Below, one piece after another: positions 6,737 through 49,971 of a stretch of DNA of 64,000 bases. The notes under the pieces are model-generated. The model was not told the origin of the DNA. It worked only from the letters and a program-made list of their open reading frames with translations, and did no database searches. Location: assembly GCA_965230925.1 (NCBI GenBank), contig OZ246403.1, positions 68,360 through 132,359 on the forward strand, in the 5' to 3' direction. Both the position numbers and the translations under genes were made by a program. How positions within the stretch are numbered: position 1 is the stretch's first letter; the number at the start of each line of letters is the position of its first letter. The DNA comes from an uncultured Candidatus Saccharibacteria bacterium. GTDB taxonomy: Bacteria; Patescibacteriota; Minisyncoccia; Phycocordibacterales; JACOZG01.

Positions 6737-7756
6737 ATGAAAACTAAAGTTGGGATCAATGGCTTGGGGCGGATTGGTCGAGCGTTTCTTAAAATTGCGG
6801 TGAAGCGAGAGGAACTCGAGGTGGTAGCGGTGAATGATTTGGGCGACTTAGAAAATCTGGCCTATCTTATTAAGTACGATAGCGCGTATGGAAAGTTTGA
6901 TGGAGAAGTGCTTACTCGAAACGGCAAGCTGGTGGTGAACGGCAAAGAAATTACTTTTTGCCAAAAAAAAGAACCAAAAGAGCTTCCTTGGGGTCAGCTT
7001 GGGGTGGATGTTGTTGTCGAATCAACAGGCTTCTTCGAAACTTATGAGAAAGCGAGGGGTCACATTGATGCCGGAGCGCACAAGGTGGTGATCTCCGCGC
7101 CAGTGAAGGGTGACCCAGTGCCAGGTATCTCGGGCGCGACCGTTTTGATGGGGATTAATGAAGACAAGCTCGCAACCTGCCAAATTACCTCGAACGCTTC
7201 TTGCACTACGAACTCGGCGAGTCCGGTGATTCAGATTCTCCACGACGCGATTGGGATCGAGAAGGCCGTGCTCTCGACGGTGCACGCTTACACCGCAACG
7301 CAAAAAATTGTGGATACACCGGATGCTAAAGATTGGCGGAGAGGGCGAGCGGCCGCGGCTAACATTGTGCCAAGTACCACCGGCGCGGCAATTGCGGTCA
7401 CGGAGGCGATTCCGGCCTTAAAGGGTCTCTTCGACGGTATTGCTTTACGAGTGCCGGTGATTGCTGGTTCGGTGGCCGACATTACCTTTATTGCGCGCCG
7501 ACGAACCAGTGTGGAAGAAGTAAATAATATTCTCAAAAAAGCGGCGAGTGAGCCACGGTGGAAAAATATTTTTACCGCGAGCGAAGAACAGCTTGTCTCG
7601 TCAGACATTGTCGGCAACCCCTACGCCTCCATCGCCGACCTCGGCTTTACCAAGGTTGTTGGTGGTAATCTGGTTAAAGTTCTCGCCTGGTACGATAATG
7701 AAATGGGGTATACGCACGCCTTGGTGGAGCATGTGATTAAGGCGGGACGGAGTTAA
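6737..7756 (+). CDS. gap: Glyceraldehyde-3-phosphate dehydrogenase
   Basis: NGLGRIGR Rossmann motif and the SNASCTTNS active-site motif, 339 aa. Confidence 0.95.
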   Translation: MKTKVGINGLGRIGRAFLKIAVKREELEVVAVNDLGDLENLAYLIKYDSAYGKFDGEVLTRNGKLVVNGKEITFCQKKEPKELPWGQLGVDVVVESTGFFETYEKARGHIDAGAHKVVISAPVKGDPVPGISGATVLMGINEDKLATCQITSNASCTTNSASPVIQILHDAIGIEKAVLSTVHAYTATQKIVDTPDAKDWRRGRAAAANIVPSTTGAAIAVTEAIPALKGLFDGIALRVPVIAGSVADITFIARRRTSVEEVNNILKKAASEPRWKNIFTASEEQLVSSDIVGNPYASIADLGFTKVVGGNLVKVLAWYDNEMGYTHALVEHVIKAGRS

Positions 7757-7757
7757 T

Positions 7758-8228
7758 ATGAAAATCTATCTTGGTACCGATCATGCCGGTTTTGAACTTA
7801 AAGAAAAGTTAAAAGTGTGGCTGAAGGAGGAAGGTCATCAGGTTTTGGATGAAGGTGCTTTTGAGCTCGATCCTGAAGATGATTATCCAGATTTTATAAA
7901 AATTGTGGCGAAGCAAGTGGCGAGCGATGCGGGTAGCTTCGGAATTATCTTGGGGGGTTCGGGTCAAGGTGAGGCCATGGCGGCCAATAGGCATGCTGGC
8001 GTACGGGCAACTGTTTACTATGGGAATAAACCGGAGATTCTCAAACTCTCACGTCAGCATAATAATGCTAATATTCTTTCGCTTGGGGCGCGTTTTATCA
8101 CCGAGAGTGAGGCCAAGGAAGCGGTAGAAACCTGGCTCGAGACTGATTTTGTTGGCGAGGAGCGGCACGCGCGTCGCATTGCGAAATTAGATGAACAAGA
8201 ATCCGGTCAAGTGGCTCACGATTTTTAA
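7758..8228 (+). CDS. rpiB: Ribose-5-phosphate isomerase B
   Basis: RpiB/LacAB pattern (IYLGTDHAGFELK...GIILGGSGQGEAMAANR). Confidence 0.9.
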   Translation: MKIYLGTDHAGFELKEKLKVWLKEEGHQVLDEGAFELDPEDDYPDFIKIVAKQVASDAGSFGIILGGSGQGEAMAANRHAGVRATVYYGNKPEILKLSRQHNNANILSLGARFITESEAKEAVETWLETDFVGEERHARRIAKLDEQESGQVAHDF

Positions 8229-8237
8229 ACTTTAAAC

Positions 8238-8903
8238 ATGGCAGAAATTATCCCGTCAATTATTGGCAAGAATTTTACTGAAGTAGCGTCGAAGATGGCG
8301 CAAATTAATGATTTGGTTAAGTGGATTCATTTTGATGTGGTAGACGGCAAGTTTGCGAAGCCGGCTAGTTGGCCTGCCCGCCATAGCTACGCTTCAGGCG
8401 TTGCAGGCGGGGCAATAGACGACATAGCTACGATTGGTAGCAAAGTTAAGATCGAAGCGCACCTCATGATCGAAGCGCCGGAAGAGGTGTTGCCCTTGTG
8501 GCTCGAGGTCGCCGACCGCGTGATTGTGCATTACGAGGCGACTCATAACTTAACCGAGATTCTCGATGTTATTGGTCTGCGCGTTAACGAAGCCGGTGTG
8601 GCGCTCCTGATGAGCACCGATCTCGATGTTCTCACGCCGCATATTGAGAAAATTGATGTGGTCCAACTCATGACCATCGACGAAATTGGCGAGTATGGTC
8701 ATTCATTTAGTTCTCGTGCCCTGGAGAGAATCCGCGCCTTGCGATCAAAATTTCCCAACGTAAAAATCTCTGTTGACGGTGGTATTAATATAGAAACGGG
8801 TAAGCAGGCGATCGAAGCGGGAGCAGACCAACTCGTTGTCGGTTCAGCGATTTGGGAAGCATCCGATCTGGCGAAGGTGATTGAGGAGTTTAAGAAGTTG
8901 TAA
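8238..8903 (+). CDS. rpe: Ribulose-phosphate 3-epimerase
   Basis: HFDVVDG, HLM, DGGIN and AGAD..VVGSAI motifs, with an insertion in loop 1. Confidence 0.8.
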   Translation: MAEIIPSIIGKNFTEVASKMAQINDLVKWIHFDVVDGKFAKPASWPARHSYASGVAGGAIDDIATIGSKVKIEAHLMIEAPEEVLPLWLEVADRVIVHYEATHNLTEILDVIGLRVNEAGVALLMSTDLDVLTPHIEKIDVVQLMTIDEIGEYGHSFSSRALERIRALRSKFPNVKISVDGGINIETGKQAIEAGADQLVVGSAIWEASDLAKVIEEFKKL

Positions 8904-9551: not shown

Positions 9552-10433
9552 ATGCACTTCATCATGCCCCATCTTCACGACGAGAAAATTAAGTTTTTGG
9601 AACAAAAGGCGAATGATATTCGTCGCTCGATCATTGAGATGCTGGTGGCTGCAGGTTCTGGTCACACGGCGGGGCCCTTGGGTATGGCCGATATTTTCAC
9701 CGCGCTCTATTTTCATCTTTTAAATCACGATCCTAAGCGACCAAATTGGGACGATCGCGACAGAGTGATTCTCTCTAATGGTCACATTTGCCCCGTGCTC
9801 TACGCCACGATGGCGCATGCCGGGTACTTCCCTGTGGAAGAACTCAAGACATTGCGCCGCTTCGGTTCTCGGCTCCAGGGTCATCCTCATCGTGAGTGGT
9901 TGCCCGCGCTTGAGACCAGTTCTGGTCCGCTTGGTTCTGGCCTTTCGCAAGCGGTGGGCATGGCGCTCGCTGAGCGTATCGATCGCGGCCGCGCTTCAGA
10001 TAAATTTTTCTATTGTCTCATGAGCGACGGCGAGTTCGATGCTGGGAATACTTGGGAGGGGATCTTGCTCGCGGGTAAAGAATCACTACACAATCTCATT
10101 GCGATCGTTGATCGCAATAATATTCAGATCGACGGCTTTACCGAGGACATCATGCCGCTTGAGCCGTTTAAGGCCAAGCTCGAGGCCTTCAACTGGCAGG
10201 TGCTCGAGATCGATGGTCACAACTTCGAGCAAATTAGTGATGCTGTCGGCCGAGCGAAGGCAGTGTTTAATAATCCCTCGATCATCATCGCTAACACCAT
10301 TCCCGGCAAAGGTGTGGCTGAATTTGAGCGCAAAGTTGAGTGGCACGGCAAACCACCAAATAAAGACGAAGCCAAAAACGCTTTGCATGAACTAAGGACG
10401 CTTTGGGGAAAGGTAAAGAGTGAGCATGAGTAA
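9552..10433 (+). CDS. tkt: Transketolase, N-terminal subunit (split transketolase)
   Basis: TPP-binding N-terminal motifs (GSGHTAGPLGMADI...SNGHICPVLYA), 293 aa with no C-terminal half. Confidence 0.9.
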   Translation: MHFIMPHLHDEKIKFLEQKANDIRRSIIEMLVAAGSGHTAGPLGMADIFTALYFHLLNHDPKRPNWDDRDRVILSNGHICPVLYATMAHAGYFPVEELKTLRRFGSRLQGHPHREWLPALETSSGPLGSGLSQAVGMALAERIDRGRASDKFFYCLMSDGEFDAGNTWEGILLAGKESLHNLIAIVDRNNIQIDGFTEDIMPLEPFKAKLEAFNWQVLEIDGHNFEQISDAVGRAKAVFNNPSIIIANTIPGKGVAEFERKVEWHGKPPNKDEAKNALHELRTLWGKVKSEHE

Positions 10434-10677
10434 AAACCACATAATTATTAGTTGTATCTATTTAGCTGTCCTGTTAATGTTTTTCCTTCGCTCCACTCTT
10501 GAAAAAGCTGTCCCAGTTTCTATAATATTTTTGATCTTTTCTTTGGTTCTCATACTCAAAAAACGATTTCCTTATACAGCTTTTTCCTTAATAGTTTTTA
10601 TAATCTCTGTTTTACACGTAATTTTGTTCCCGCTACTTGCGGTGCTTATCATTTTTTCTGGTGGACCTGCGTTATAA
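10420..10677 (+). CDS. Small three-TM membrane protein, paralog 1 of 5
   Basis: 85 aa, three hydrophobic helices, and a KKRFPY loop between TM2 and TM3. AT-rich codons. It overlaps the tkt N-subunit stop by 14 nt. Confidence 0.5.
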   Translation: MSMSKNHIIISCIYLAVLLMFFLRSTLEKAVPVSIIFLIFSLVLILKKRFPYTAFSLIVFIISVLHVILFPLLAVLIIFSGGPAL

Positions 10678-10722
10678 TTGTACTTATAGTGATTAACTCA
10701 AACCAACAAGTGGCCACAATCG

Positions 10723-11064
10723 GTGCGGTTTATAAAAATCTACATGAGTAGCTCTAAACTAAAAAAGTTTTTTCACTTTACTAACACCAGAATGTCTTTG
10801 GCTATCTTGATTTTTGTTATCGGACTCATTTTGTTGTTAGGTTTATTGCCGCAAGCACTAAACGATCACGGCGGAGCAACAACCTCTTTGGGAGGCTTGT
10901 TTCTGGCTATTATTTTCTGGCCAGGAGCCGTTTTTATGAGTCTTGGTCAGGTTTTGTCCTTAGGTTTTATCTTTGCCCCTATAGCTTTTGTAGCCAGCGT
11001 TCTGTATTTTTACGCGTTGTCTTGTGTTTTCTGTAATCTTGTTTCTTATATAAAAAATAAATAA
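10723..11064 (+). CDS. Small three-TM membrane protein, paralog 2 of 5 (start uncertain; internal ATGs at 10744 and 10789)
   Basis: 113-aa ORF with three hydrophobic segments, in an AT-rich region. Confidence 0.45.
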   Translation: MRFIKIYMSSSKLKKFFHFTNTRMSLAILIFVIGLILLLGLLPQALNDHGGATTSLGGLFLAIIFWPGAVFMSLGQVLSLGFIFAPIAFVASVLYFYALSCVFCNLVSYIKNK

Positions 11065-11066
11065 TC

Positions 11067-11354
11067 ATGAGTAAGTTTCTTAAATTCGTCGAACTGTTAT
11101 CGGTTTCTTATTTTGCAATCTCAGCCCCAATACTCTTTTTGAGCTTGCGGCCAACGTTTTTCGATATTCTTTTTCCTAAGGTGATGTTGATTGGTGGTCC
11201 AATAAGTTTAATGATGACCCCCCCATTGATAATTTATTTTCAAAAACCACCCAAAATAAGGTGGCCCGCCGGATTTTCTCTAGCAACCGCTTCTATTATT
11301 AGTCTTTGCTTCTTGTTTTTCTTGGCGCTCCTTTGGTCGGTAGATTTAATTTAA
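11067..11354 (+). CDS. Small three-TM membrane protein, paralog 3 of 5
   Basis: 95 aa, MSKFLKF N-terminus, QKPPKIRWP loop between TM2 and TM3. Confidence 0.5.
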   Translation: MSKFLKFVELLSVSYFAISAPILFLSLRPTFFDILFPKVMLIGGPISLMMTPPLIIYFQKPPKIRWPAGFSLATASIISLCFLFFLALLWSVDLI

Positions 11355-11406
11355 AAAGTTAATCTCAGTCAGTAGTTTCAACTTCGTGATATCATTTTAA
11401 ACGAGC

Positions 11407-11697
11407 ATGAGTAAACTTAAGAAAATAAATTGGTGGATTAGTTTAGGTTTTCTTGTCGTGCTTGTTTCTTCGTTTCTGATTCCATATATTTTTCCTCTCG
11501 ATCTTTTGCCTTATCTGCTTGGCGTACTCCCATTCATTTGGATTCTATCTATTATTGATTTAATAAAACCACCAAGGTCTAAACTAGTAATTTTGGTAAT
11601 GATTTTAGCTGTAGTATTTTACCTTGTTCACGATACTCTATTTCATTGCGGCCTGTCCTGGGGAAAATTATTCGAAGAGGGTAAAATCTGCATTTAG
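11407..11697 (+). CDS. Small three-TM membrane protein, paralog 4 of 5
   Basis: 96 aa, MSKLKKI N-terminus, IKPPRSK loop between TM2 and TM3. Confidence 0.5.
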   Translation: MSKLKKINWWISLGFLVVLVSSFLIPYIFPLDLLPYLLGVLPFIWILSIIDLIKPPRSKLVILVMILAVVFYLVHDTLFHCGLSWGKLFEEGKICI

Positions 11698-11750
11698 AAG
11701 TTAACCCCAGGCGGTGAATTTTATTTTTTTGGTTGTGTTAAAATTTATAC

Positions 11751-12023
11751 ATGGTATTTATCGCGGTTTTATATTTGATTGGCTCTCTCGTAACCATCTT
11801 TAATTTTATTTCCGTACCACTTTTGGACCTTTCCTTTCCTAATGTAGTGGTAGCGCTAGTGGTTGGTTCGATTACTTTTACTGCTTCACCACTATTGCTC
11901 ATTGGAAGTCTAATCTCAATTTTCTACCTCAAGAAGAGGTCGCCATTATTTTTTGTTGTTATGGCAGTATCGCTTGTGATGTCGCTATTTTACATTTATT
12001 CTTTTTTGCGTCCGACATATTAA
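11751..12023 (+). CDS. Small three-TM membrane protein, paralog 5 of 5
   Basis: 90 aa, LKKRSP loop between TM2 and TM3. It ends 1 nt before the tkt C-subunit start. Confidence 0.5.
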   Translation: MVFIAVLYLIGSLVTIFNFISVPLLDLSFPNVVVALVVGSITFTASPLLLIGSLISIFYLKKRSPLFFVVMAVSLVMSLFYIYSFLRPTY

Positions 12024-12024
12024 A

Positions 12025-13011
12025 ATGCTCAACCCCAACCAACATTTAAATCCCAGACTTTTTGATCTGAATGTCGAGCAGGTGCCGATTCGGAAGGGTT
12101 TTGGCGAGGGATTACTCGCGGCGGCGGAGAAGGATGAACGGATTGTGGGCTTGTGCGCGGATCTTACGGAAAGTACGCAGATGCATTTGTTTCGGAATAA
12201 ATTCCCGAATCGCTTTGTGGAGATTGGTGTCGCGGAGCAAAATTTGGCCACTGTTGCCTCGGGCATGGCGGCGATGGGCAAGATCCCATTCTTGAGTTCT
12301 TACGCCATGTTTAGCCCGGGTCGGAATTGGGAGCAGATTCGCACGACGATTTGCTATAACGACCAAGATGTGAAGATTGTGGGCTCGCATGCTGGTGTTT
12401 CTGTTGGTCCCGATGGCGGTACGCACCAAGCGATTGAGGACATTGCGATTATGCGCGTGATCCCACGGATGACGGTGGTAGTGCCATGCGATACGATTGA
12501 GGCCAAGAAGGCGACCCTCGCGATTGCGGCTAAGCGCGGTGCCACTTACTTGCGCTTGGCGCGAGAGAAAACGCCAGTAATTACCACCGAAGATACACCC
12601 TTCGAGCTCGGTAAAGCCAATGTGCTCATGGACCCCGAAGACGCTCAAGTGGCGATCTTCGCTTGTGGTCAACCGGTTTACAATGCTCTTGTGGCGGCGA
12701 AAAAGTTAGATAAAGAGGGAATTAAAGTCGCGGTAATTAATTTACATACGATTAAACCACTTGATACGAAAACGATTTTACACTTTGCCAAAAAGGCGGG
12801 GAAAATTCTTACCGTCGAAGAACATCAGAAGCATAGCGGCATGGGCAGTGCCATCGCCGAATTTTTGGTAGAAAATTACCCAATCCCGATGGCCATCCTC
12901 GGCGTCAATGACGAATTCGGCCAAAGCGGCACTCCCGAGCAACTCGTGGAGCACTATGGTCTCGGTGTTGACTCAATTGTGGAGAAGACGAAGAGTTTAA
13001 CTAAGAATTAA
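12025..13011 (+). CDS. tkt: Transketolase, C-terminal subunit (pyrimidine-binding plus C-terminal domains)
   Basis: FGEGLLAAAEKDERIVGLCADL and EIGVAEQNLATVASGMA motifs, 328 aa. Confidence 0.9.
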   Translation: MLNPNQHLNPRLFDLNVEQVPIRKGFGEGLLAAAEKDERIVGLCADLTESTQMHLFRNKFPNRFVEIGVAEQNLATVASGMAAMGKIPFLSSYAMFSPGRNWEQIRTTICYNDQDVKIVGSHAGVSVGPDGGTHQAIEDIAIMRVIPRMTVVVPCDTIEAKKATLAIAAKRGATYLRLAREKTPVITTEDTPFELGKANVLMDPEDAQVAIFACGQPVYNALVAAKKLDKEGIKVAVINLHTIKPLDTKTILHFAKKAGKILTVEEHQKHSGMGSAIAEFLVENYPIPMAILGVNDEFGQSGTPEQLVEHYGLGVDSIVEKTKSLTKN

Positions 13012-43459: not shown

Positions 43460-46117
43460 ATGAAAGGCAAGAAAAAAACCTATTTACTCGTTGAGTTCCC
43501 GTATCCATCCGGCGATGGTTTGCACGTGGGTCATGTGCGTAGTTACACGGCGATGGATATTGTGGCGCGGAAGCGGCGAATGCAGGGCGAAGAAGTAATG
43601 TACCCAATGGGTTGGGACGCTTTTGGTTTGCCCGCCGAGAATTACGCAATCAAAACTGGCATTAACCCCGCCATCACGACAAAGAAAAATATCGACACTT
43701 TCCGCCGACAGCTTAAGGCTTTGGGAATTTCTTTTGACTGGAAACGGGAGGTGAATACGACCGATCCGAATTATTACAAATGGACGCAGTGGTTATTCTT
43801 ACAATTCTTTAAACAAGGTTTGGCGTATAAATCGAAGTCAGAAATTAATTGGTGTCCAAAAGATAAAATTGGTCTCGCGAATGAGGAGGCGATTGGTGGC
43901 GTGTGTGAGCGTTGTGGGACGAAAACCGAGAAGCGCGAGAAAGAACAATGGATGCTCGCGATTACGAAGTACGCTGATCGACTTGATAAAGATCTTGATC
44001 TCGTGGATTACCCCGAGCCGGTGAAGTTGCAACAGCGCAACTGGATCGGGAAAAGTGAGGGGTGGGAAATTGATTTCGATAATATTAAAGTTTTTACCAC
44101 CCGGCCGGACACCATCTTCGGTGCGAGTTTTGTGGCTATTGCGCCGGAGTTAGCGAAAAAGTTAACGGGCAAAGATTTTGGTATTAGGGTTGATAATGAT
44201 CGGGAAAATAAGGAGAAAGTGGGTGCTGATACTGGTTTGCGGGTAAAGAATCCGGCCAGTGGCGAAGAATTGCCAGTGTGGGTCGTGAATTACGTCTCGG
44301 CCGACTACGGCACCGGCGCCATCATGGGCGTGCCTGCTCACGACGAACGTGATTTTGAATTTGCCAAGAAATACAACTTGCCAATTAAAGCCGTGGTAAT
44401 GCCAAGCCTAACTGATTACTCTAATCCACCGCGGGAAGGGAAAGAAAACACTTTCCGCAATATGGTGCTCGGTATTCTGCACAATCCAAAAACAAAAAAA
44501 TATCTGGTTCTGAAGTGGAAGAAACAGCCGTGGATCGGTTTTGTTACCGGAGGAGTTGAAGAAGGAGAAAATCATGCTGAAGCGATGAAACGTGAAATCG
44601 CTGAAGAGACTGGTTATACCAACACCAAATTGGTGAGAAGCTTAGGAATGACTGAGGCGTACTTTTTTGCCGCGCACAAAGATGTGAATCGTCGAACTCA
44701 TGGTGAACACTTCTTGTTTGAACTACTTGATGAAACCAGAAATGAAGTGAGCAAAGAAGAGCAAGAATTGTATGATTTTGAATGGCTTTCTTTCGACGAG
44801 CTCAAAGCGACGCGATTGCAACACACTGAGTCGCCAATGCTCTTAGACCGAATCGCCACGGGAAAAGATTTTTTCACCGGCTCGGGCCGAGTTTTCAACT
44901 CGGGAGAGTTCTCTGATCTCATGAGCGACGAGGCGAAAGAGGAAATCGCCAAAGAAGTAGGCGGGAAAAAGGTGACGACATATAAACTCCGCGATTGGGT
45001 GTTTAGCCGGCAGCGGTACTGGGGTGAGCCAATTCCAATGATTTATTGCAATGATTGCGGGTGGCAGCCGGTCCCGGAGAAAGATTTACCGGTCAAATTG
45101 CCGAAGATGGATAAATATCAGCCAACGGATAATGGCGAATCGCCACTCGCGAATATTAAAAAGTTCGTGGAAACAAAGTGTCCAAAGTGTAAGAGCAAAG
45201 CGCGCCGAGAAACAGACACAATGCCCAACTGGGCTGGATCTTCTTGGTATTACCTCCGGTACACTGATCCCAAAAACAAAAAAGAATTTGCGAGCAAGAA
45301 AAATCTTGAACATTGGCTGCCAGTAGACTGGTACAACGGCGGCATGGAGCATACCACACTTCACCTGCTCTATTCCCGTTTCTGGCACAAATTCCTGTTT
45401 GATCAAAAGCTTGTGCCGGGCAAAGAACCGTATGCCAAACGCACATCGCATGGTCTCATTCTCGCTTCTGATGGCGAAAAGATGAGTAAATCGCGGGGGA
45501 ATGTAATTAATCCCGATGAAATTGTGAAAATGTATGGCGCCGACGCCCTGCGGCTCTACGAAATGTTTATGGGCCCCTTCGAGCAGGCGGTCTCATGGCA
45601 GACTGAGAGTATTATTGGCGTGAAGCGCTTCTTGGAGCGAGTGGAAAAAGCGGGGAGGAAGGTGAGTAAAAAAGCTTCTGATCACCAGCTTGATATTTTA
45701 ATCAACAAAACTGTTCAGAAAGTGAGCGATGACATAGAAGCGATGCGCTTCAACACCGCCGTGAGCGCGCTGATGATTGCACTCAATGAACTGGAGAAGG
45801 CAGAGAAAATCCCAGCTAAAGTGTGGGAGACTTTCTTAACCCTACTTTCGCCCTTTGCGCCACATATCGCGACCAAACTAAAAGCAGGTAAAAAGTGGCC
45901 AATCTATGACCCGAAATTGGTGGGCGAAGAAAAAAAGAAGCTTTCTGTCCAAATTAATGGCAAGGCTCGGGGAATTCTCGAAGTCTCTGGGGCTGAAACT
46001 GAGGCGGAAATTCTTCAACTCGCTGAACAAGAAGCCAATCTCGCCAAGTGGTTCTCTGGCAAACCTCTCAAAAAAGTTGTCTACCAACCAGGAAGGTTTA
46101 TCAACCTCATTGTTTGA
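43460..46117 (+). CDS. leuS: Leucyl-tRNA synthetase carrying a Nudix-box-containing insertion (~150 aa)
   Basis: HIGH-type motif HVGHV, TTRPDT and GTGAIMGVPAHD editing-domain motifs, KMSKS. A 150-aa insert with a perfect Nudix box (GGVEEGENHAEAMKREIAEETGY) lies between the editing domain and the GRVFNSGEF block. Confidence 0.9.
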   Translation: MKGKKKTYLLVEFPYPSGDGLHVGHVRSYTAMDIVARKRRMQGEEVMYPMGWDAFGLPAENYAIKTGINPAITTKKNIDTFRRQLKALGISFDWKREVNTTDPNYYKWTQWLFLQFFKQGLAYKSKSEINWCPKDKIGLANEEAIGGVCERCGTKTEKREKEQWMLAITKYADRLDKDLDLVDYPEPVKLQQRNWIGKSEGWEIDFDNIKVFTTRPDTIFGASFVAIAPELAKKLTGKDFGIRVDNDRENKEKVGADTGLRVKNPASGEELPVWVVNYVSADYGTGAIMGVPAHDERDFEFAKKYNLPIKAVVMPSLTDYSNPPREGKENTFRNMVLGILHNPKTKKYLVLKWKKQPWIGFVTGGVEEGENHAEAMKREIAEETGYTNTKLVRSLGMTEAYFFAAHKDVNRRTHGEHFLFELLDETRNEVSKEEQELYDFEWLSFDELKATRLQHTESPMLLDRIATGKDFFTGSGRVFNSGEFSDLMSDEAKEEIAKEVGGKKVTTYKLRDWVFSRQRYWGEPIPMIYCNDCGWQPVPEKDLPVKLPKMDKYQPTDNGESPLANIKKFVETKCPKCKSKARRETDTMPNWAGSSWYYLRYTDPKNKKEFASKKNLEHWLPVDWYNGGMEHTTLHLLYSRFWHKFLFDQKLVPGKEPYAKRTSHGLILASDGEKMSKSRGNVINPDEIVKMYGADALRLYEMFMGPFEQAVSWQTESIIGVKRFLERVEKAGRKVSKKASDHQLDILINKTVQKVSDDIEAMRFNTAVSALMIALNELEKAEKIPAKVWETFLTLLSPFAPHIATKLKAGKKWPIYDPKLVGEEKKKLSVQINGKARGILEVSGAETEAEILQLAEQEANLAKWFSGKPLKKVVYQPGRFINLIV
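44410..44880 (+). other. Nudix-box-containing insertion (~150 aa) within leuS
   Basis: GX5EX7REUXEEXGU satisfied at nt 44549-44617. Canonical LeuRS has only about 25 aa at this position. Confidence 0.65.
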
Positions 46118-46170
46118 CACAGTTGACTAAAAATAGATAGGATGATAGAAATAAGGTAATTATTAAAAAT

Positions 46171-47199
46171 ATGGCCAAAATGAGCCCAAATTTTAAGCCC
46201 AAGGAGGTGGTCAAAGGCCTCTTAATTAGTCTCCCAGAACGCTCACAAGACGTGATCCGGAAGCGCTATGGTTTGGACGCTGAGGAAGGTATGACGCTCG
46301 AAGCAATCGGGCAGATTTACGGTATTACTCGTGAGCGCGTACGCCAGATTGAGGAAGCCACGCTCAAGATGATCAAGAAGTCTGAGCACTTTGCCCGTCT
46401 TGCGGCTGAACTTGAGGAACTTAAGTCGGCGCTTGAGGATTACGGTGGTATTGCCCATGAAGGTGAATTCCTCCGCCATCTCCACGACCATCCTACGACC
46501 CAAAACCAAGTGAACTTCCTCTTGGTACTTGGTGACGACTTCGTTCGCCTTAAGGAAGACGACGATTTCCATCATCGCTGGACGGTCAATAAAGGATTGG
46601 CCGACCGCGTGCATGTGGCGCTTAATAAACTCGCCAAAGAACTCGGCGAAGACGATTTGCTTTCCGAAAAAGATATTGTTTCTAAGCTCTTGGCCAAACT
46701 TGATGGCGACACCAAGGATGATCTCTTCCGTGAACGTGGTCGCCGCTGGCTCGCTATTTCTAAGAAAATTGGCGCTAACCCTGTAGGTGAATGGGGCCTC
46801 GCTGTTTCCCCTAATGTCCGCCTCCGCGGTATCCGTGATTACGCCTTCCTCGTACTCCGACGCCATGGCTCGCCGCTCCACTTTACCGAAGTGGCCAAGG
46901 CTATTGAATCTTCTTTCAAACACCGCGCCAATGCCGCCACTTGCCACAACGAACTCATTAAAGATGACCGTTTTGTTCTCGTGGGTCGCGGTCTCTACGC
47001 ACTTACTGAGTGGGGTTACACCCGCGGTGTCGTTCGTGACGTTATTCGCGCCCTCATTGAGAAGCATGGCCCAATGACCGAGAAAGAAATTATTGACCGC
47101 GTGATGAAGGAGCGCTATGTGAAGGAAAACACCATTCTCGTTAATCTCCGCAATAGCAAAAACTTTAAGAAAAACAGTTCCGGCAAATACACAGTCTAA
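46171..47199 (+). CDS. Putative DNA-binding protein with an N-terminal sigma70-region-4-like HTH and a C-terminal HARE-HTH-like winged helix
   Basis: Residues about 17-66, LPERSQDVIRKRYGLD...MTLEAIGQIYGITRERVRQIEEATLKMIKK, match the sigma-70 r4 signature. The C-terminus FTEVAKAIE...DDRFVLVGRGLYALTEWGY resembles HARE-HTH. Confidence 0.5.
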   Translation: MAKMSPNFKPKEVVKGLLISLPERSQDVIRKRYGLDAEEGMTLEAIGQIYGITRERVRQIEEATLKMIKKSEHFARLAAELEELKSALEDYGGIAHEGEFLRHLHDHPTTQNQVNFLLVLGDDFVRLKEDDDFHHRWTVNKGLADRVHVALNKLAKELGEDDLLSEKDIVSKLLAKLDGDTKDDLFRERGRRWLAISKKIGANPVGEWGLAVSPNVRLRGIRDYAFLVLRRHGSPLHFTEVAKAIESSFKHRANAATCHNELIKDDRFVLVGRGLYALTEWGYTRGVVRDVIRALIEKHGPMTEKEIIDRVMKERYVKENTILVNLRNSKNFKKNSSGKYTV

Positions 47200-47238
47200 C
47201 TGGTAGCCCCCAAGCACCCCATCCGTTATAATGGAGGG

Positions 47239-48459
47239 GTGTTTTTGGTTCAAGTGTTGCAACTAACTCTCGAAACCCTCGTCAACGGATTTTTCCAGAC
47301 GAGTGTGATCTGGCTTCCGTTTGGTCTTGGCGGTATCACCTGGACTCTCTGGTACCGCTACAAGCAAGCGCAATACATTAATGCCACCGCTTGGGTATTG
47401 TTAGAAATTAAAATTCCGAAAATCATTGATAAATCACCGCAAGCGATGGAGATGGTGATGGGAATTTTTCATCAGACTTGGCAGGGGAATTGGCTGAATC
47501 GCTTCACCCAAGGTATTGTCCGCGGCTGGTTCTCTTTAGAACTGGTGTCGTTTGGTGGTGAACTTCATTTTTATATCCGAGCACCAAAATTCTTCCGTAG
47601 CATTGTGGAAGCGCAAATTTATTCGCAATATCCTGAGGTTGAGATTTACCAAGCAGATGATTACGTAACCAAGGTAGACCTAAACTCGCCAGGAAGCGCT
47701 CTCGATATTTGGGGTGGGGAGTGGCAGTTGAGCAAAGATGATCCTTATCCGATAAAAACCTATCTCGATTACAAGCTCGATGAGAATCCCGATGAGGAAT
47801 TCAAAATTGATCCGATTACGCCTCTGATTGAGTTCTTTGGTTCCATTAAGCCCACCGAGCAACTCTGGATGCAGGTCTTGATCCAAGCTACCAAGGATCG
47901 CTATCCGGATCCAAAAACCTGGTTTGGCAAAAGAGATTGGAAGGCAGAAGGAAAAGACTTGATTGAGAAGCTGATGAAGCGTGATAAGCAACCTAAACCC
48001 GATGAACCGCTGCGCTTAGAAATTCTCTCACCGGGCGAGCGCGAGGCCGTGGCCGCCGTGGAGCGCAGTATCTCCAAGCTCGGCTTCGACTGCGGTATGC
48101 GCACCATTTATCTTGGACCTAAAGACAAATTTGATCCCGTGAAGCCGGTGGGTCTCCGCGGATGTATGCGCCAATTTAGCTCGCAGCACTTAAATGGTTT
48201 CAAGGTGAAAAAAGACACGACCGTGGACTTCCCGTGGCAAGACTTCCGTGGCATCCGGGTAGCGTATAAGAAGAAAAAAATGTTTAAAGCCTATGCCTTG
48301 CGCGGTTGGTTCTACGAGCCCTTCAAGCGCAAACCTTTCGTGCTGAACACTGAGGAGCTTGCTACCATTTACCACTTCCCTGGCGCGGTGGCGCGCACGC
48401 CGACCCTCGAGAAAATCGAGTCGAAGAAGGGCGAGGCGCCAATCAATTTACCTTTATAA
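47239..48459 (+). CDS. Hypothetical membrane-anchored protein of 406 aa (start uncertain)
   Basis: N-terminal hydrophobic segment (VIWLPFGLGGITWTLWY). No recognised domain. Confidence 0.45.
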   Translation: MFLVQVLQLTLETLVNGFFQTSVIWLPFGLGGITWTLWYRYKQAQYINATAWVLLEIKIPKIIDKSPQAMEMVMGIFHQTWQGNWLNRFTQGIVRGWFSLELVSFGGELHFYIRAPKFFRSIVEAQIYSQYPEVEIYQADDYVTKVDLNSPGSALDIWGGEWQLSKDDPYPIKTYLDYKLDENPDEEFKIDPITPLIEFFGSIKPTEQLWMQVLIQATKDRYPDPKTWFGKRDWKAEGKDLIEKLMKRDKQPKPDEPLRLEILSPGEREAVAAVERSISKLGFDCGMRTIYLGPKDKFDPVKPVGLRGCMRQFSSQHLNGFKVKKDTTVDFPWQDFRGIRVAYKKKKMFKAYALRGWFYEPFKRKPFVLNTEELATIYHFPGAVARTPTLEKIESKKGEAPINLPL

Positions 48460-48462
48460 ATC

Positions 48463-49416
48463 ATGAAGAAAAAAAGAAAGATTATTCTTATCTCACTAGC
48501 GATTGTGGTCTTTATTATCGGCTGGACTGCGATTTTACTTGTCTTGCCACCGAGCGACTTCCCACTTGAAAAAACAGTAAAGATTGAAGCTGGTCTTAAC
48601 CTGGATGAGATTGCGACCAAACTTACCAGCGAGCGATTGATAAGGAGCGAACGGGTTTTTAAATTCCTGGTGTATCTTGGCGGTACGGCGCGAGTGATCC
48701 CGGCGGGGGATTATTTCTTCCCCAAAAAGGCCAGTGCTTTCAGCGTAGCTAAGCGCTTCGGCAATGGTATTTTTAATCTCAACCTCGCCAAGATTACAAT
48801 TCCGGAGGGTGCGACGGCTAAAGAAATTGGAGTGTTAATTAAACGCAAAATTAAAGAATTTGATATCGAGAACTTCAATTTACTCGCCACGCCACTTGAG
48901 GGCTACCTTTTCCCCGACACCTACTTCTTCTCACCCAAGATCACTCCCGCCGAAGCCGTGGAATATCTCCACAGTAATTTCAAAAATCAAACCGCGAGCG
49001 CCCTAGAAGCGGTTAAAAAATCAGGGAGAACTCTCGAAGAAATTATTACCATGGCCGCGCTTCTTGAGGAAGAAGCCAAAACCACCGACTCGCGGCGCAT
49101 TATTTCAGGGATTCTCTGGAAGCGGATCGATGATGATATGTTGCTCCAAGTAGACGCTGTTTTCCCTTACATTATTAATAAAAACACTTTTGAGGTCACG
49201 CGGAAAGATCTCCAAACAGACTCGCCGTACAATACGTATAAATATAAAGGCCTTCCGGCTGGGCCAATTACCAACCCTGGTCTCGACGCCATTCTGGCGG
49301 CCGCTGAGCCCCTAGAATCGCCCTATTGGTTCTATCTTTCTGACCATTCTGGTAGGATGCACTACGCTATTGATTACGATCAACACAAAAAAAATAAAGC
49401 CCAATATCTGAACTAG
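48463..49416 (+). CDS. mltG: Endolytic murein transglycosylase MltG/YceG family
   Basis: N-terminal TM segment, YceG-like motifs (YFFSP; GLPAGPITNPGLDAILAA). Confidence 0.75.
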   Translation: MKKKRKIILISLAIVVFIIGWTAILLVLPPSDFPLEKTVKIEAGLNLDEIATKLTSERLIRSERVFKFLVYLGGTARVIPAGDYFFPKKASAFSVAKRFGNGIFNLNLAKITIPEGATAKEIGVLIKRKIKEFDIENFNLLATPLEGYLFPDTYFFSPKITPAEAVEYLHSNFKNQTASALEAVKKSGRTLEEIITMAALLEEEAKTTDSRRIISGILWKRIDDDMLLQVDAVFPYIINKNTFEVTRKDLQTDSPYNTYKYKGLPAGPITNPGLDAILAAAEPLESPYWFYLSDHSGRMHYAIDYDQHKKNKAQYLN

Positions 49417-49971
49417 ATGAAAAAACACGACCTTGCCTTCATCGACCTGGAAACCACCGGGTTCAACCCTGACCAACACGAGATCATTGAGCTCGGCTGT
49501 CTCATTGCGCGACAAGTGCCACAAAACAACGGCCGCGGGCCCAAGGTTGAGCTTGTCGATGAGTTTGAATTCAAAATTAAACCAACACACATTGAGACCG
49601 CTGACCCCGGCGCCTTTGCGAAAAATGGCTACAATGATGCTGATTGGCTCTTCGCCATTGATCTCAAGAGTGCACTCGAACAAGTATCTAAGAAAGCGGA
49701 GGGTGCCTCCATGGTGGGGCATAACGTGACCTTCGACTGGAACTTCCTCAACAAGGCATTTAATACGACTGGCGTGGCAAATAAAATGCATTATCATCGC
49801 ATCGACACCATGTCGATGGCCTTCGCCAAACTTTATCACAATGAACGGGCGCAATACTTCAGTCTCCAGGCGCTCTGCGAACTCTTCGATATCAAAAATG
49901 ATCGCGCCCACACCGCGCTCTCCGATATCCGCGCCACCTTCGAGCTCTACAAAAAGTTGTTAGAGATTTGA
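49417..49971 (+). CDS. DEDDh 3'-5' exonuclease (DnaQ/epsilon-like)
   Basis: Exo I (FIDLETTG), Exo II (VGHNVTFDWNFL) and Exo III (HTALSDIRAT) motifs. Confidence 0.85.
   Translation: MKKHDLAFIDLETTGFNPDQHEIIELGCLIARQVPQNNGRGPKVELVDEFEFKIKPTHIETADPGAFAKNGYNDADWLFAIDLKSALEQVSKKAEGASMVGHNVTFDWNFLNKAFNTTGVANKMHYHRIDTMSMAFAKLYHNERAQYFSLQALCELFDIKNDRAHTALSDIRATFELYKKLLEI

Follow-up and report, generated by a model that had tools for sequence, protein, structure and literature searches.

The analysed window is a 64,000-nucleotide stretch of a contig from an uncultured Candidatus Saccharibacteria bacterium with housekeeping gene content. It contains a gene encoding a protein of 342 amino acids, in which a sigma-70 region 4 is combined with a HARE-HTH winged helix (sigma4/HARE protein), followed by genes encoding a membrane-anchored DUF8128 protein, the endolytic transglycosylase YceG/MltG and a DEDDh (RNase T-type) exonuclease (Table 1). 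The first two open reading frames are present as the initial annotation had given them, and the start of the sigma4/HARE gene is backed by an alignment of homologues. A long antisense open reading frame on the minus strand (46243-47262) was rejected as a mirror ORF without support. The position of the DEDDh exonuclease gene is less conserved than the rest of the block, and the gene lies downstream in a minority of loci.

Table 1. Features of the sigma4/HARE locus (positions within the window).
Feature	Position	Strand	Evidence and remarks
Sigma-70-type promoter region of the sigma4/HARE gene	46114..46151	+	Promoter scan and direct sequence reading
Sigma4 + HARE-HTH gene, 342 aa	46171..47199	+	ATG start; end includes stop codon
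Sigma-70 region 4 (residues 11-83)	46201..46419	+	Pfam, NCBIfam, PDB, tblastn, contact-residue conservation
Middle region (residues 76-212)	46396..46806	+	Model secondary structure, per-domain pI, conservation
HARE-HTH winged helix (residues 223-281)	46837..47013	+	Pfam PF05066
C-terminal basic winged-helix-like unit (residues 285-342)	47023..47196	+	Model secondary structure H-H-H-E-E
Hairpin followed by UUUUU in the 39-nt spacer	47212..47246	+	RNA fold -22.8 kcal/mol, z=-3.7
DUF8128 gene, 406 aa	47239..48459	+	GTG start; alternative in-frame TTG start at 47245
YceG/MltG endolytic transglycosylase gene	48463..49416	+	Pfam YceG 3.8e-67; starts 3 nt past DUF8128
DEDDh (RNase T-type) exonuclease gene	49417..49971	+	Pfam RNase_T 3.6e-22; abuts YceG

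A sigma-70 region 4 HTH had been proposed near the N-terminus of the 342-aa protein, and profile searches confirmed it: Sigma70_r4 (PF04545) matches residues 18-69 (nt 46222-46377; E=5e-15, 55.2 bits against a curated cutoff of 24.1), and a PDB sequence search aligned residues 11-77 to region 4 of SigA/RpoD proteins, with 33-50% identity and 4g6d as best match (E=5.8e-11). Using regions 2-4 of B. subtilis SigA as tblastn query, region 4 alone was matched (46201-46416). The domain includes the recognition helix TRERVRQIE; the following helix aligns with the C-terminal end of sigma factors, and the alignments to the RpoD, SigC and MzaA models of NCBIfam reach residue 83. The AlphaFold monomer model of the protein (pLDDT 89, pTM 0.67) contains no disordered segments, and the middle region, which is the most variable stretch of the family, is predicted to form two helix/strand units whose secondary structure follows a winged-helix-like pattern. 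The first of these units is acidic (pI 4.95), and no sequence-level repeat was detected in the middle region by hhalign. The HARE-HTH, with an E-value of 2e-9 and 38.2 bits, passes the Pfam gathering cutoff of 25.9 and is the most conserved domain, 42 of its 69 columns being at least 90% conserved among close members; it is also matched in 46 of 50 divergent family members. The initial annotation had assigned this domain to the C-terminus; the domain stands, but its placement at the extreme end does not, since around 60 residues follow. This last unit gives weak Pfam matches to DUF3320 and DUF4777, and TBPIP and Rok winged-helix matches in a few family members. The calculated pI is 9.21 for the whole protein, 9.1 for the sigma4 domain, 9.7 for the HARE-HTH and 10.2 for the C-terminal unit.

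The 342-aa protein is not a sigma factor, and it is not a delta subunit of RNA polymerase (RNAP) either. Sigma70_r2 and Sigma70_r3 of Pfam remained unmatched even at E<=1, the sigma-70 family model TIGR02937 scored 35.0 bits against a cutoff of 42.9, and the RpoD, RpoS and RpoH models of NCBIfam scored far under their cutoffs and matched residues 11-83 alone, in agreement with the earlier view that regions 2 and 3 are absent and that this is not a true sigma factor. Of three sigma-factor hallmarks, region 4 with its -35 recognition helix is the only one found. It has the same fold as region 4 of the primary sigma factors RpoD/SigA, the same TRER(V/I)RQIE recognition helix and all of the -35-contact residues; however, it is located at the N-terminus instead of the C-terminus and is followed by approximately 270 residues of winged-helix modules. 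As regions 1.1, 2 and 3 are missing, the protein would be expected neither to bind the beta-prime clamp helices nor to recognize -10 elements or melt DNA. The proposal of a delta-like subunit does not hold in the sense of family membership. Delta (RpoE, Bacillota) and the sigma4/HARE protein share the HARE-HTH with a common D-RF-L---W-L--W-type motif, but the match to the delta model TIGR04567 (25.1 bits) stays below the cutoff of 42. Furthermore, delta consists of an N-terminal HARE-HTH and a long acidic disordered tail with a net charge of -47 (PMC7749165), whereas the HARE-HTH of the sigma4/HARE protein is internal (223-281 of 342), the protein is basic and its chain ends in a basic unit in place of an acidic disordered region. 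The best match in both NCBIfam (E=8e-19) and PADLOC (2e-9) is MzaA, the sigma factor of the MZA anti-phage system; however, this match is limited to the C-terminal region 4 of MzaA (profile positions 644-716 of 726) and reaches 68 bits where the cutoff is 800, the DUF8128 protein is unmatched, and the genes of the surrounding 64 kb are housekeeping genes rather than defence genes, and an anti-phage role was rejected. GerE (PF00196) likewise gave no Pfam match in the sigma4/HARE protein even at E<=1; unlike LuxR/GerE-type HTH regulators, the protein is similar specifically to region 4 of primary sigma factors.

In the PDB alignment, residue n of the sigma4/HARE protein corresponds to residue n+530 of E. 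coli sigma70. The equivalents of R554, R562, L573, T583, R584, E585, R586, R588 and Q589, which we take to be -35 contacts on the basis of the Taq sigma A region 4/-35 DNA structure 1KU7, are 100% conserved among 24 close members and 92-100% conserved in 50 representatives whose overall identity is only 35-49%. For sigma32, the equivalents L253, E265, R266 and R268 have been confirmed as -35 contacts (PMC10216364). That the reading head has kept its primary-sigma state despite this divergence suggests an invariant, -35-like target and not an operator particular to one lineage. Three of the six positions by which sigma32 contacts the beta-flap tip also remain hydrophobic, the equivalents of W244, L245 and L278 being F/Y, L and I/L in 46-50 of 50 divergent members, whereas the other three are variable. 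Docking to RNAP is therefore equally allowed; the retained residues are also part of the fold core, however, and their retention is thus not specific to flap binding.

The protein belongs to a very large, uncharacterised family that is specific to Parcubacteria-group Patescibacteria. The family is present in at least 577 GTDB species, all of them Patescibacteria of the Parcubacteria group, and comprises 385 clusters at 50% identity (E<=1e-30), and its architecture is fixed in 49/50 and 46/50 members. NCBI lists it under generic names only, and a literature search yielded no paper describing either this or the DUF8128 family. Across the same loci, the sigma4/HARE protein has a median identity of 54% compared to 48% for LeuRS, a level more typical of core machinery than of DNA-binding regulators.

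Upstream of the sigma4/HARE gene, the promoter region carries tandem hexamers, TTGACA (46114) and TTGACT (46123). The promoter scan paired TTGACA with TAGGAT over an 18-nt spacer (10/12 matches), while direct reading of the sequence offers an alternative pairing of TTGACT with the extended -10 element TGaTAGAAA over 17 nt. TTGAC is approximately 7-fold enriched 40-100 nt upstream of sigma4/HARE genes in 87 related loci, with TGATAnAAT-like -10 elements after it, and TTGAC-N16-19-TAnnnT occurs upstream of the gene in 46 of 90 loci; the host promoters use the TTGAC element. Tandem TTGAC motifs, a possible hint at autoregulation, are found in only 29 of 87 loci.

The DUF8128 protein consists of an N-terminal membrane helix (2-49), an alpha/beta domain (approximately 50-383) whose predicted structure has the fold of the VirB4 N-terminal domain (NTD), and a disordered tail (384-406) with the conserved sequence TPTL..IESK.GE.P.NLP, which looks like a docking motif. 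The initial annotation found no recognisable domain here, and neither Pfam nor NCBIfam gave a match, the Pfam set having been searched without the PF26449 model. However, all 120 homologues listed carry the precomputed label PF26449/DUF8128, as do the neighbours in loci L001, L003, L092 and L093; among the labelled proteins is P0121 (337 aa), a shorter gene call that is 100% identical over 83% of the 406-aa query. The nine best Foldseek matches of the predicted structure are all TrwK chains. Like the VirB4/TrwK NTD of type IV secretion systems (T4SS) and EccE of the ESX type VII secretion system, the DUF8128 protein would be a membrane-anchored cytoplasmic scaffold domain, but sequence identity to them is only 6-8% and there is no profile-level match. 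It also differs from VirB4 in lacking the C-terminal ATPase domain, as the protein terminates after the NTD-like domain and the 23-residue tail; Pfam searches for a P-loop and for CagE_TrbE_VirB found no Walker A/B ATPase domain, and a PDB sequence search was likewise empty. Finally, its gene forms an operon with mltG and not with a virB cluster. DUF8128 is thus, by its predicted fold, a VirB4-NTD-like membrane scaffold that is translationally coupled to the cell wall enzyme MltG.

The hairpin in the spacer between the sigma4/HARE and DUF8128 genes sequesters both the GTG start of DUF8128 and the Shine-Dalgarno sequence before it, GGAGG (47233-47237). The hairpin resembles a terminator, an attenuator or a translational-coupling element; a consensus terminator scan missed it because its stem has a bulge. 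A hairpin followed by a T-run is located in 31 of 67 related spacers compared to 11 of 335 control segments, and about half of the loci (33/69) have a terminator-like hairpin between the two genes. TTGAC is present in the spacer in just 3 of 64 loci and a promoter-like pattern in 1 of 64. The two genes are adjacent in approximately 80 of the 93 species-level loci examined, across two candidate phyla and with four different upstream genes, and in L003 they share 4 nt. L085, L088, L044 and L054 lack the pairing but still have a conserved sigma4/HARE protein. The initial annotation had suggested the downstream membrane protein as a functional partner. The conserved adjacency and the spacer without a canonical promoter agree with this; however, the coupling of DUF8128 to YceG/MltG is far tighter than that to the sigma4/HARE gene. 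The median gap is 59 nt between the sigma4/HARE and DUF8128 genes but 3 nt between DUF8128 and YceG, where 54 of 76 loci have a gap of 10 nt or less and only 4 of 76 a terminator-like hairpin. In addition, unrelated housekeeping genes encoding LeuRS, MnmA and an ATP-cone/Mrr protein are equally syntenic in the block.

Taken together, the sigma4/HARE protein is not a sigma factor but probably a general transcription or DNA-binding factor specific to its lineage. We tentatively favour a genome-wide promoter-DNA-binding factor, a reading that falls short of an even chance. Its region 4, left unmasked by the absence of regions 1.1, 2 and 3, would read TTGAC(A) -35-type hexamers in the manner of sigma A, while the basic winged helices (HARE-HTH and C-terminal unit) may contribute DNA contacts and possibly RNAP contacts; the protein could thereby be a competitor or a partner of sigma A at promoters, its own included. 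Both the DNA sequence that it recognises and whatever it does to transcription are inferred. A DNA-binding role via the intact -35 reading head would fit at least as well as the sigma-mimic or anti-sigma action proposed earlier. HARE-HTH domains are known from both settings: that of ASXL1 bound duplex DNA in pull-down assays (PMC6591016), while that of delta, the only bacterial one with a solved complex, sits on RNAP between the beta-prime shelf and jaw and does not bind DNA (PMC7749165). The main rival, itself doubtful, is that the protein is bound to RNAP as an accessory subunit or a general initiation factor and would remodel promoter use or RNAP recycling, with region 4 on the beta-flap tip helix, replacing or competing with region 4 of sigma A, and the HARE-HTH on beta-prime like the delta NTD. 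The conserved -35-contact residues would also persist if region 4 worked mounted on RNAP, the sigma homology extends through the last sigma helix to residue 83, and the hydrophobic flap-contact equivalents, the sub-threshold delta match and the conservation above LeuRS, as expected of core machinery, are all consistent with such a subunit. However, the hydrophobic residues double as fold core, the three further flap-contact equivalents vary, delta membership fails with the missing acidic tail, and the interaction between region 4 and the flap is weak on its own (PMC3985653).

The gene order would also suit a regulator that acts locally on the neighbouring DUF8128-mltG operon, in the classic layout of a regulator beside its target, with its own promoter and often a terminator-like hairpin. 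This is improbable: the spacer offers hardly any site for the region-4 head, the protein is conserved where the pairing is lost, and both the primary-sigma state of the reading head and the level of conservation are atypical for a local regulator. Quite improbable, too, is physical work with DUF8128 at the membrane, where the protein would tether DNA or the chromosome or act as a DNA-handling adaptor in an envelope or type IV secretion-like machine, with the VirB4-NTD-like protein as membrane scaffold and MltG to open the wall. Patescibacteria have a widespread chromosomal T4SS, whose VirB8 and VirB1 homologues are difficult to find (PMC12102498), both families are apparently lineage-specific and adjoin across lineages, DUF8128 has no separate canonical promoter, and its fold and tail would suit such a machine. 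The hairpins, the wider gap and the equally syntenic housekeeping genes speak against it, however, as do the absence of T4SS genes and of an ATPase partner from the 64-kb window and the T4SS study itself, which places virB4 near dnaA and does not mention the sigma4/HARE family (PMC12102498). In principle, a region 4 that stands alone and has its -35 head intact could also be one half of a split sigma factor, acting in trans for a sigma factor that lacks its own region 4. Two-subunit sigma factors exist, for example SigO-RsoA of B. subtilis. However, the 270 extra winged-helix residues are ill-suited to the role of a simple missing domain, no region-2-only partner adjoins, and the one Patescibacteria sigma factor found beside a family member (552 aa, L085) has both region 2 and region 4; a split sigma factor is highly improbable. 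CPR genomes are annotated with full-length RpoD; no rpoD gene was found in the 64-kb window or the 93 loci.

A stoichiometric, lineage-specific general transcription factor, with its free region 4 on the beta-flap and/or the -35 element and its HARE-HTH gripping beta-prime, is unlikely. If it did exist, promoter recognition in thousands of CPR species would be split between sigma A and a second obligatory protein, a division not described for bacterial RNAP. For the DUF8128 family, the second uncharacterised lineage-wide family, the predicted VirB4-NTD-like fold provides a first structural handle. A large part of bacterial diversity belongs to the Patescibacteria (CPR), whose genomes are tiny and have very few recognisable regulators. 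The sigma4/HARE family matters in that it is found in hundreds of species-level genomes, is conserved beyond an aminoacyl-tRNA synthetase and carries an intact -35-reading domain of the primary-sigma type.

The open reading frames at 46171-47199 (+; 342 aa) and 47239-48459 (+; 406 aa) were both found to be real. The sigma region 4 that had been proposed for the N-terminus of the first protein, referred to here as the sigma4/HARE protein, is recovered by Pfam (Sigma70_r4, residues 18-69, E=5e-15, 55.2 bits, cutoff 24.1), and residues 11-77 find their counterpart in region 4 of SigA/RpoD of many species when searched against PDB sequences (best 5.8e-11). NCBIfam sigma models cover residues 11-83 only and all score far below their whole-protein cutoffs. 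Regions 2 and 3, already described as absent, are not among the Pfam matches even at E<=1, and the same search gave no GerE match for the helix-turn-helix. The HARE-HTH domain was also detected (residues 223-281, Pfam E=2e-9, 38.2 bits, cutoff 25.9); however, it does not form the C-terminal end of the protein, as had been assumed, but is followed by about 60 residues that constitute a further basic winged-helix-like unit. The domain reading of the initial annotation is therefore correct, and none of the outcomes that it had named as refuting it was observed. The protein is not a true sigma factor because region 2 is missing, in line with the earlier suggestion. Nor is it a delta subunit, one of the options suggested earlier: its HARE-HTH lies inside the chain, an acidic tail is lacking in this basic protein, and the score of the delta model is below the cutoff.

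A confident AlphaFold model of the sigma4/HARE protein, calculated with 24 homologues as input (pLDDT 89, pTM 0.67), is divided into the units listed in the table. Comparison of five segments with hhalign revealed no significant internal repeat (best probability 13%), and the additional winged helices are therefore read solely from the secondary structure of the model.

Units of the sigma4/HARE protein and their location in the AlphaFold model
Unit	Residues	Source
Region 4, four helices	10-70	AlphaFold model
Helix that aligns with the final sigma-factor helix	directly after region 4	AlphaFold model
Two units whose helices and strands follow a winged-helix-like order	78-138, 141-210	AlphaFold model
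Pfam HARE-HTH	221-278	AlphaFold model
Last unit	288-341	AlphaFold model

The family is very large: matches to the protein comprise over 8,000 clusters at 90% identity, and relatives are encoded in the genomes of at least 577 GTDB species. Among the matches listed, members have around 340 to 350 aa and all contain both Pfam domains; NCBI knows them only as "sigma factor-like helix-turn-helix DNA-binding protein". Using the non-sigma part (residues 75-342) as query against 1.84 billion representatives, 385 clusters were found at E<=1e-30, nearly all of 330-380 aa and extended at the N-terminus by about 80 residues. The architecture is also kept among 50 divergent members of this kind, with Sigma70_r4 in 49 and HARE-HTH in 46 of them. 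Named sources are Paceibacterota, Vogel-, Kaiser-, Taylor-, Nomura- and Magasanikbacteria, which NCBI places in the Parcubacteria group. The synteny of Paceibacteria and around 55-60% identity also recur in many records labelled "uncultured Candidatus Saccharibacteria", and this label was thus treated as generic; a 3-kb contig labelled Chitinophagales, which carries a family member, is probably mis-binned. The sequence family is not new, since both domains and both protein families are already present in databases and a generic NCBI name exists. In the searchable literature, no description of DUF8128/PF26449 or of proteins combining Sigma70_r4 and HARE-HTH was found; the domain combination may nevertheless have been noted before, in the paper of Aravind and Iyer from 2012 that reportedly defined HARE-HTH. 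Neither the sigma4/HARE family nor DUF8128 is mentioned in the Patescibacteria Tn-seq and T4SS papers (T4SS: PMC12102498).

Within the same set of loci and with the window protein as reference, median identity amounts to 54% for sigma4/HARE, 48% for LeuRS and 41% each for DUF8128 and YceG. In the sigma4/HARE family, constraint is strongest on HARE-HTH and region 4, and the two middle units vary most. Residues 17-70 align without gaps to residues 547-600 of E. coli sigma70, so that residue n corresponds to n+530. The equivalents of sigma70 R554, R562, L573, T583, R584, E585, R586, R588 and Q589, which we take to be the -35 contacts known from the Taq sigma A region 4/-35 DNA structure, are 100% conserved in a close set and 92-100% conserved in 50 divergent members. 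For the sigma32 equivalents L253, E265, R266 and R268, a role in -35 contact was experimentally confirmed (PMC10216364).

Directly upstream of the sigma4/HARE gene lies a sigma-70-type promoter with TTGACA at 46114 and TTGACT at 46123. In 87 related loci, TTGAC is around 7-fold enriched 40-100 nt upstream of the gene and typically precedes a TGATAnAAT-like extended -10; TTGAC-N16-19-TAnnnT was found in 46 of 90 loci. Since this pattern recurs across related loci, these organisms make use of canonical -35 elements, and region 4 of the sigma4/HARE protein should read this very motif. Within 200 nt upstream of the gene in the 87 loci, the apparent Paceibacteria promoter consensus is TTGAC, around 17 nt and a TGATAnAAT-type extended -10. 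Autoregulation via tandem -35 hexamers, as suggested by TTGACA-N3-TTGACT in the window, was rejected as a general feature, because two or more TTGAC are present in only 29 of 87 loci.

The 406-aa protein had been described as lacking a recognisable domain. This holds true for local Pfam and NCBIfam searches, which gave zero matches; however, the protein has more than 4,200 homologues, of which all 120 listed bear PF26449 (DUF8128) as a precomputed label, and the model has a fold like that of the VirB4 N-terminal domain. The AlphaFold model (pLDDT 83, pTM 0.81) begins with a long helix (residues 2-49), continues with an alpha/beta domain and ends in a tail that is disordered yet highly conserved; its last 23 residues (TPTL..IESK.GE.P.NLP) appear similar to a docking motif. 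Nine TrwK/VirB4 chains occupy the top Foldseek ranks (E<=3.6e-4), among them the 457-residue chain 8rtd_h, which was read as a chain comprising only the N-terminal domain. The fold similarity to VirB4/TrwK is confined to this domain, and the ATPase domain is missing from DUF8128. Single-sequence and profile searches revealed no sequence-level tie to solved structures. Based on the N-terminal helix, the fold ranks and the missing ATPase domain, the model identifies DUF8128 as a predicted membrane-anchored scaffold resembling the VirB4 N-terminal domain, and not as VirB4.

Of the first 89 loci, 80 have a DUF8128 homologue directly downstream of the sigma4/HARE gene, on the same strand. The order sigma4/HARE-DUF8128-YceG persists when the upstream gene encodes LeuRS, RNase III (L003), SecDF (L086) or DnaB; in the DnaB case, Magasanikbacteria locus L090, an unannotated 466-aa neighbour matches the DUF8128 profile at E=7e-95. 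The spacer contains a canonical promoter in just 1 of 64 loci, and DUF8128 thus probably depends on read-through. The sigma4/HARE-DUF8128 junction has a median gap of 59 nt and a hairpin followed by a T-run in 33 of 69 loci, compared to 3% of control segments; DUF8128 and YceG are separated by a median of 3 nt, with such a hairpin at their junction in only 4 of 76 loci. In the window, the spacer hairpin (-22.8 kcal/mol, z=-3.7) is followed by UUUUU and, according to RNA folding, buries the ribosome-binding site and start codon of DUF8128; the consensus terminator scan missed it because of a bulge. Its loop contains a perfect TATAAT (47227-47232), 7 nt before the GTG start and without a matching -35, which could give rise to a leaderless transcript or be due to chance. 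The pairing is absent from loci L085, L088, L044 and L054, and the unrelated genes for LeuRS, MnmA and an ATP-cone/Mrr protein are equally syntenic in the same block. The proposal that both proteins work together is backed by the conserved neighbourhood and by a spacer that almost never has a promoter; the hairpin, the 59-nt gap, the loci lacking the pairing and the equal synteny of unrelated genes speak against it, and a physical partnership is no more than possible. DUF8128 and YceG/MltG are nearly always translationally coupled, often overlapping (window 47239-49971 and around 76 related loci), which suggests that DUF8128 has a function in the envelope or related to secretion. We concluded that DUF8128 and MltG are the tight functional pair and that the sigma4/HARE gene is either the highly expressed first gene of a DUF8128-mltG operon or a separate unit ahead of it.

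Several other features of these loci were observed. In L085, which lacks DUF8128, the gene for the most divergent sigma4/HARE member is convergent with that for a 552-aa sigma factor (7167-8825, -), which contains Sigma70_r2 and Sigma70_r4 and, at its C-terminus, an additional DnaA_C-like HTH. Some lineages have SecD/F directly in front of the sigma4/HARE gene (L086 741-2682), and the database entry P0350 (659 aa), a SecDF-sigma4/HARE fusion, is probably a merged gene call. In LeuRS of the window (43460-46117), a NUDIX hydrolase domain (PF00293, E=4.4e-17) has been inserted at about residues 335-460, where it closely follows the CP1 editing domain; by tblastn, 24 of 93 related loci have this insert in their LeuRS region, and two or three tandem copies are present in some of them (L033, L062, L036). 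Another Paceibacteria genome encodes a NusB-NUDIX fusion (299 aa; L003/L004 4317-5216) upstream of RNase III, and fusion of NUDIX domains to RNA-related proteins of housekeeping type seems to have occurred repeatedly in this group. Five tandem small ORFs (10420-12023, +; 85-113 aa, very hydrophobic) fill the 1.6-kb gap between separate genes for the N-terminal (9552-10433) and C-terminal (12025-13011) parts of transketolase; this region has an unusually low GC content (0.38) and an AT skew of -0.21.

The main rival to a DNA-binding role of the sigma4/HARE protein is an accessory factor docked to RNAP, with region 4 on the beta-flap and the HARE-HTH on beta-prime. Conservation at housekeeping level favours such docking, and the HARE-HTH of delta indeed sits on beta-prime (PMC7749165). 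In sigma32, A221, L225, W244, L245, L278 and E283 contact the beta-flap tip helix (PMC10216364); the equivalents of W244 (F/Y), L245 (L) and L278 (I/L) are kept in the family and the other three are variable. These hydrophobic residues would be compatible with flap binding; however, they also build the region 4 fold and are therefore not specific evidence, and we regard RNAP docking as possible but rather unlikely.

A local regulator of DUF8128-mltG is improbable, since TTGAC is not enriched in the spacer (3 of 64 loci), and a membrane-tethered DNA-handling pair of the sigma4/HARE protein and DUF8128 was given slightly less credence still. It is very improbable that the protein is one half of a split sigma factor, because the only sigma factor nearby, that of L085, has both regions 2 and 4; a search for rpoD in the window and around 1 Mb of related loci found only region 4 of the sigma4/HARE protein itself. 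HARE-HTH domains are common in conflict systems, and a match to MzaA prompted a defence-system reading, which was rejected: the likeness detected by PADLOC is confined to region 4, and the genomic context is that of housekeeping genes.

Our tentatively preferred reading is that the sigma4/HARE protein acts as a general promoter-DNA-binding factor. Region 4, which is unmasked in this protein, would recognise hexamers of the TTGAC type, and affinity would be increased by the basic winged helices; a HARE-HTH able to bind duplex DNA has been described for ASXL1 (PMC6591016). The reading head has stayed in the primary-sigma state even among deeply diverged members, which argues for an invariant target. 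The fixed architecture of an N-terminal primary-sigma region 4, a spacer, a HARE-HTH and a winged helix is specific to one lineage, in which it is conserved at the level of housekeeping proteins.
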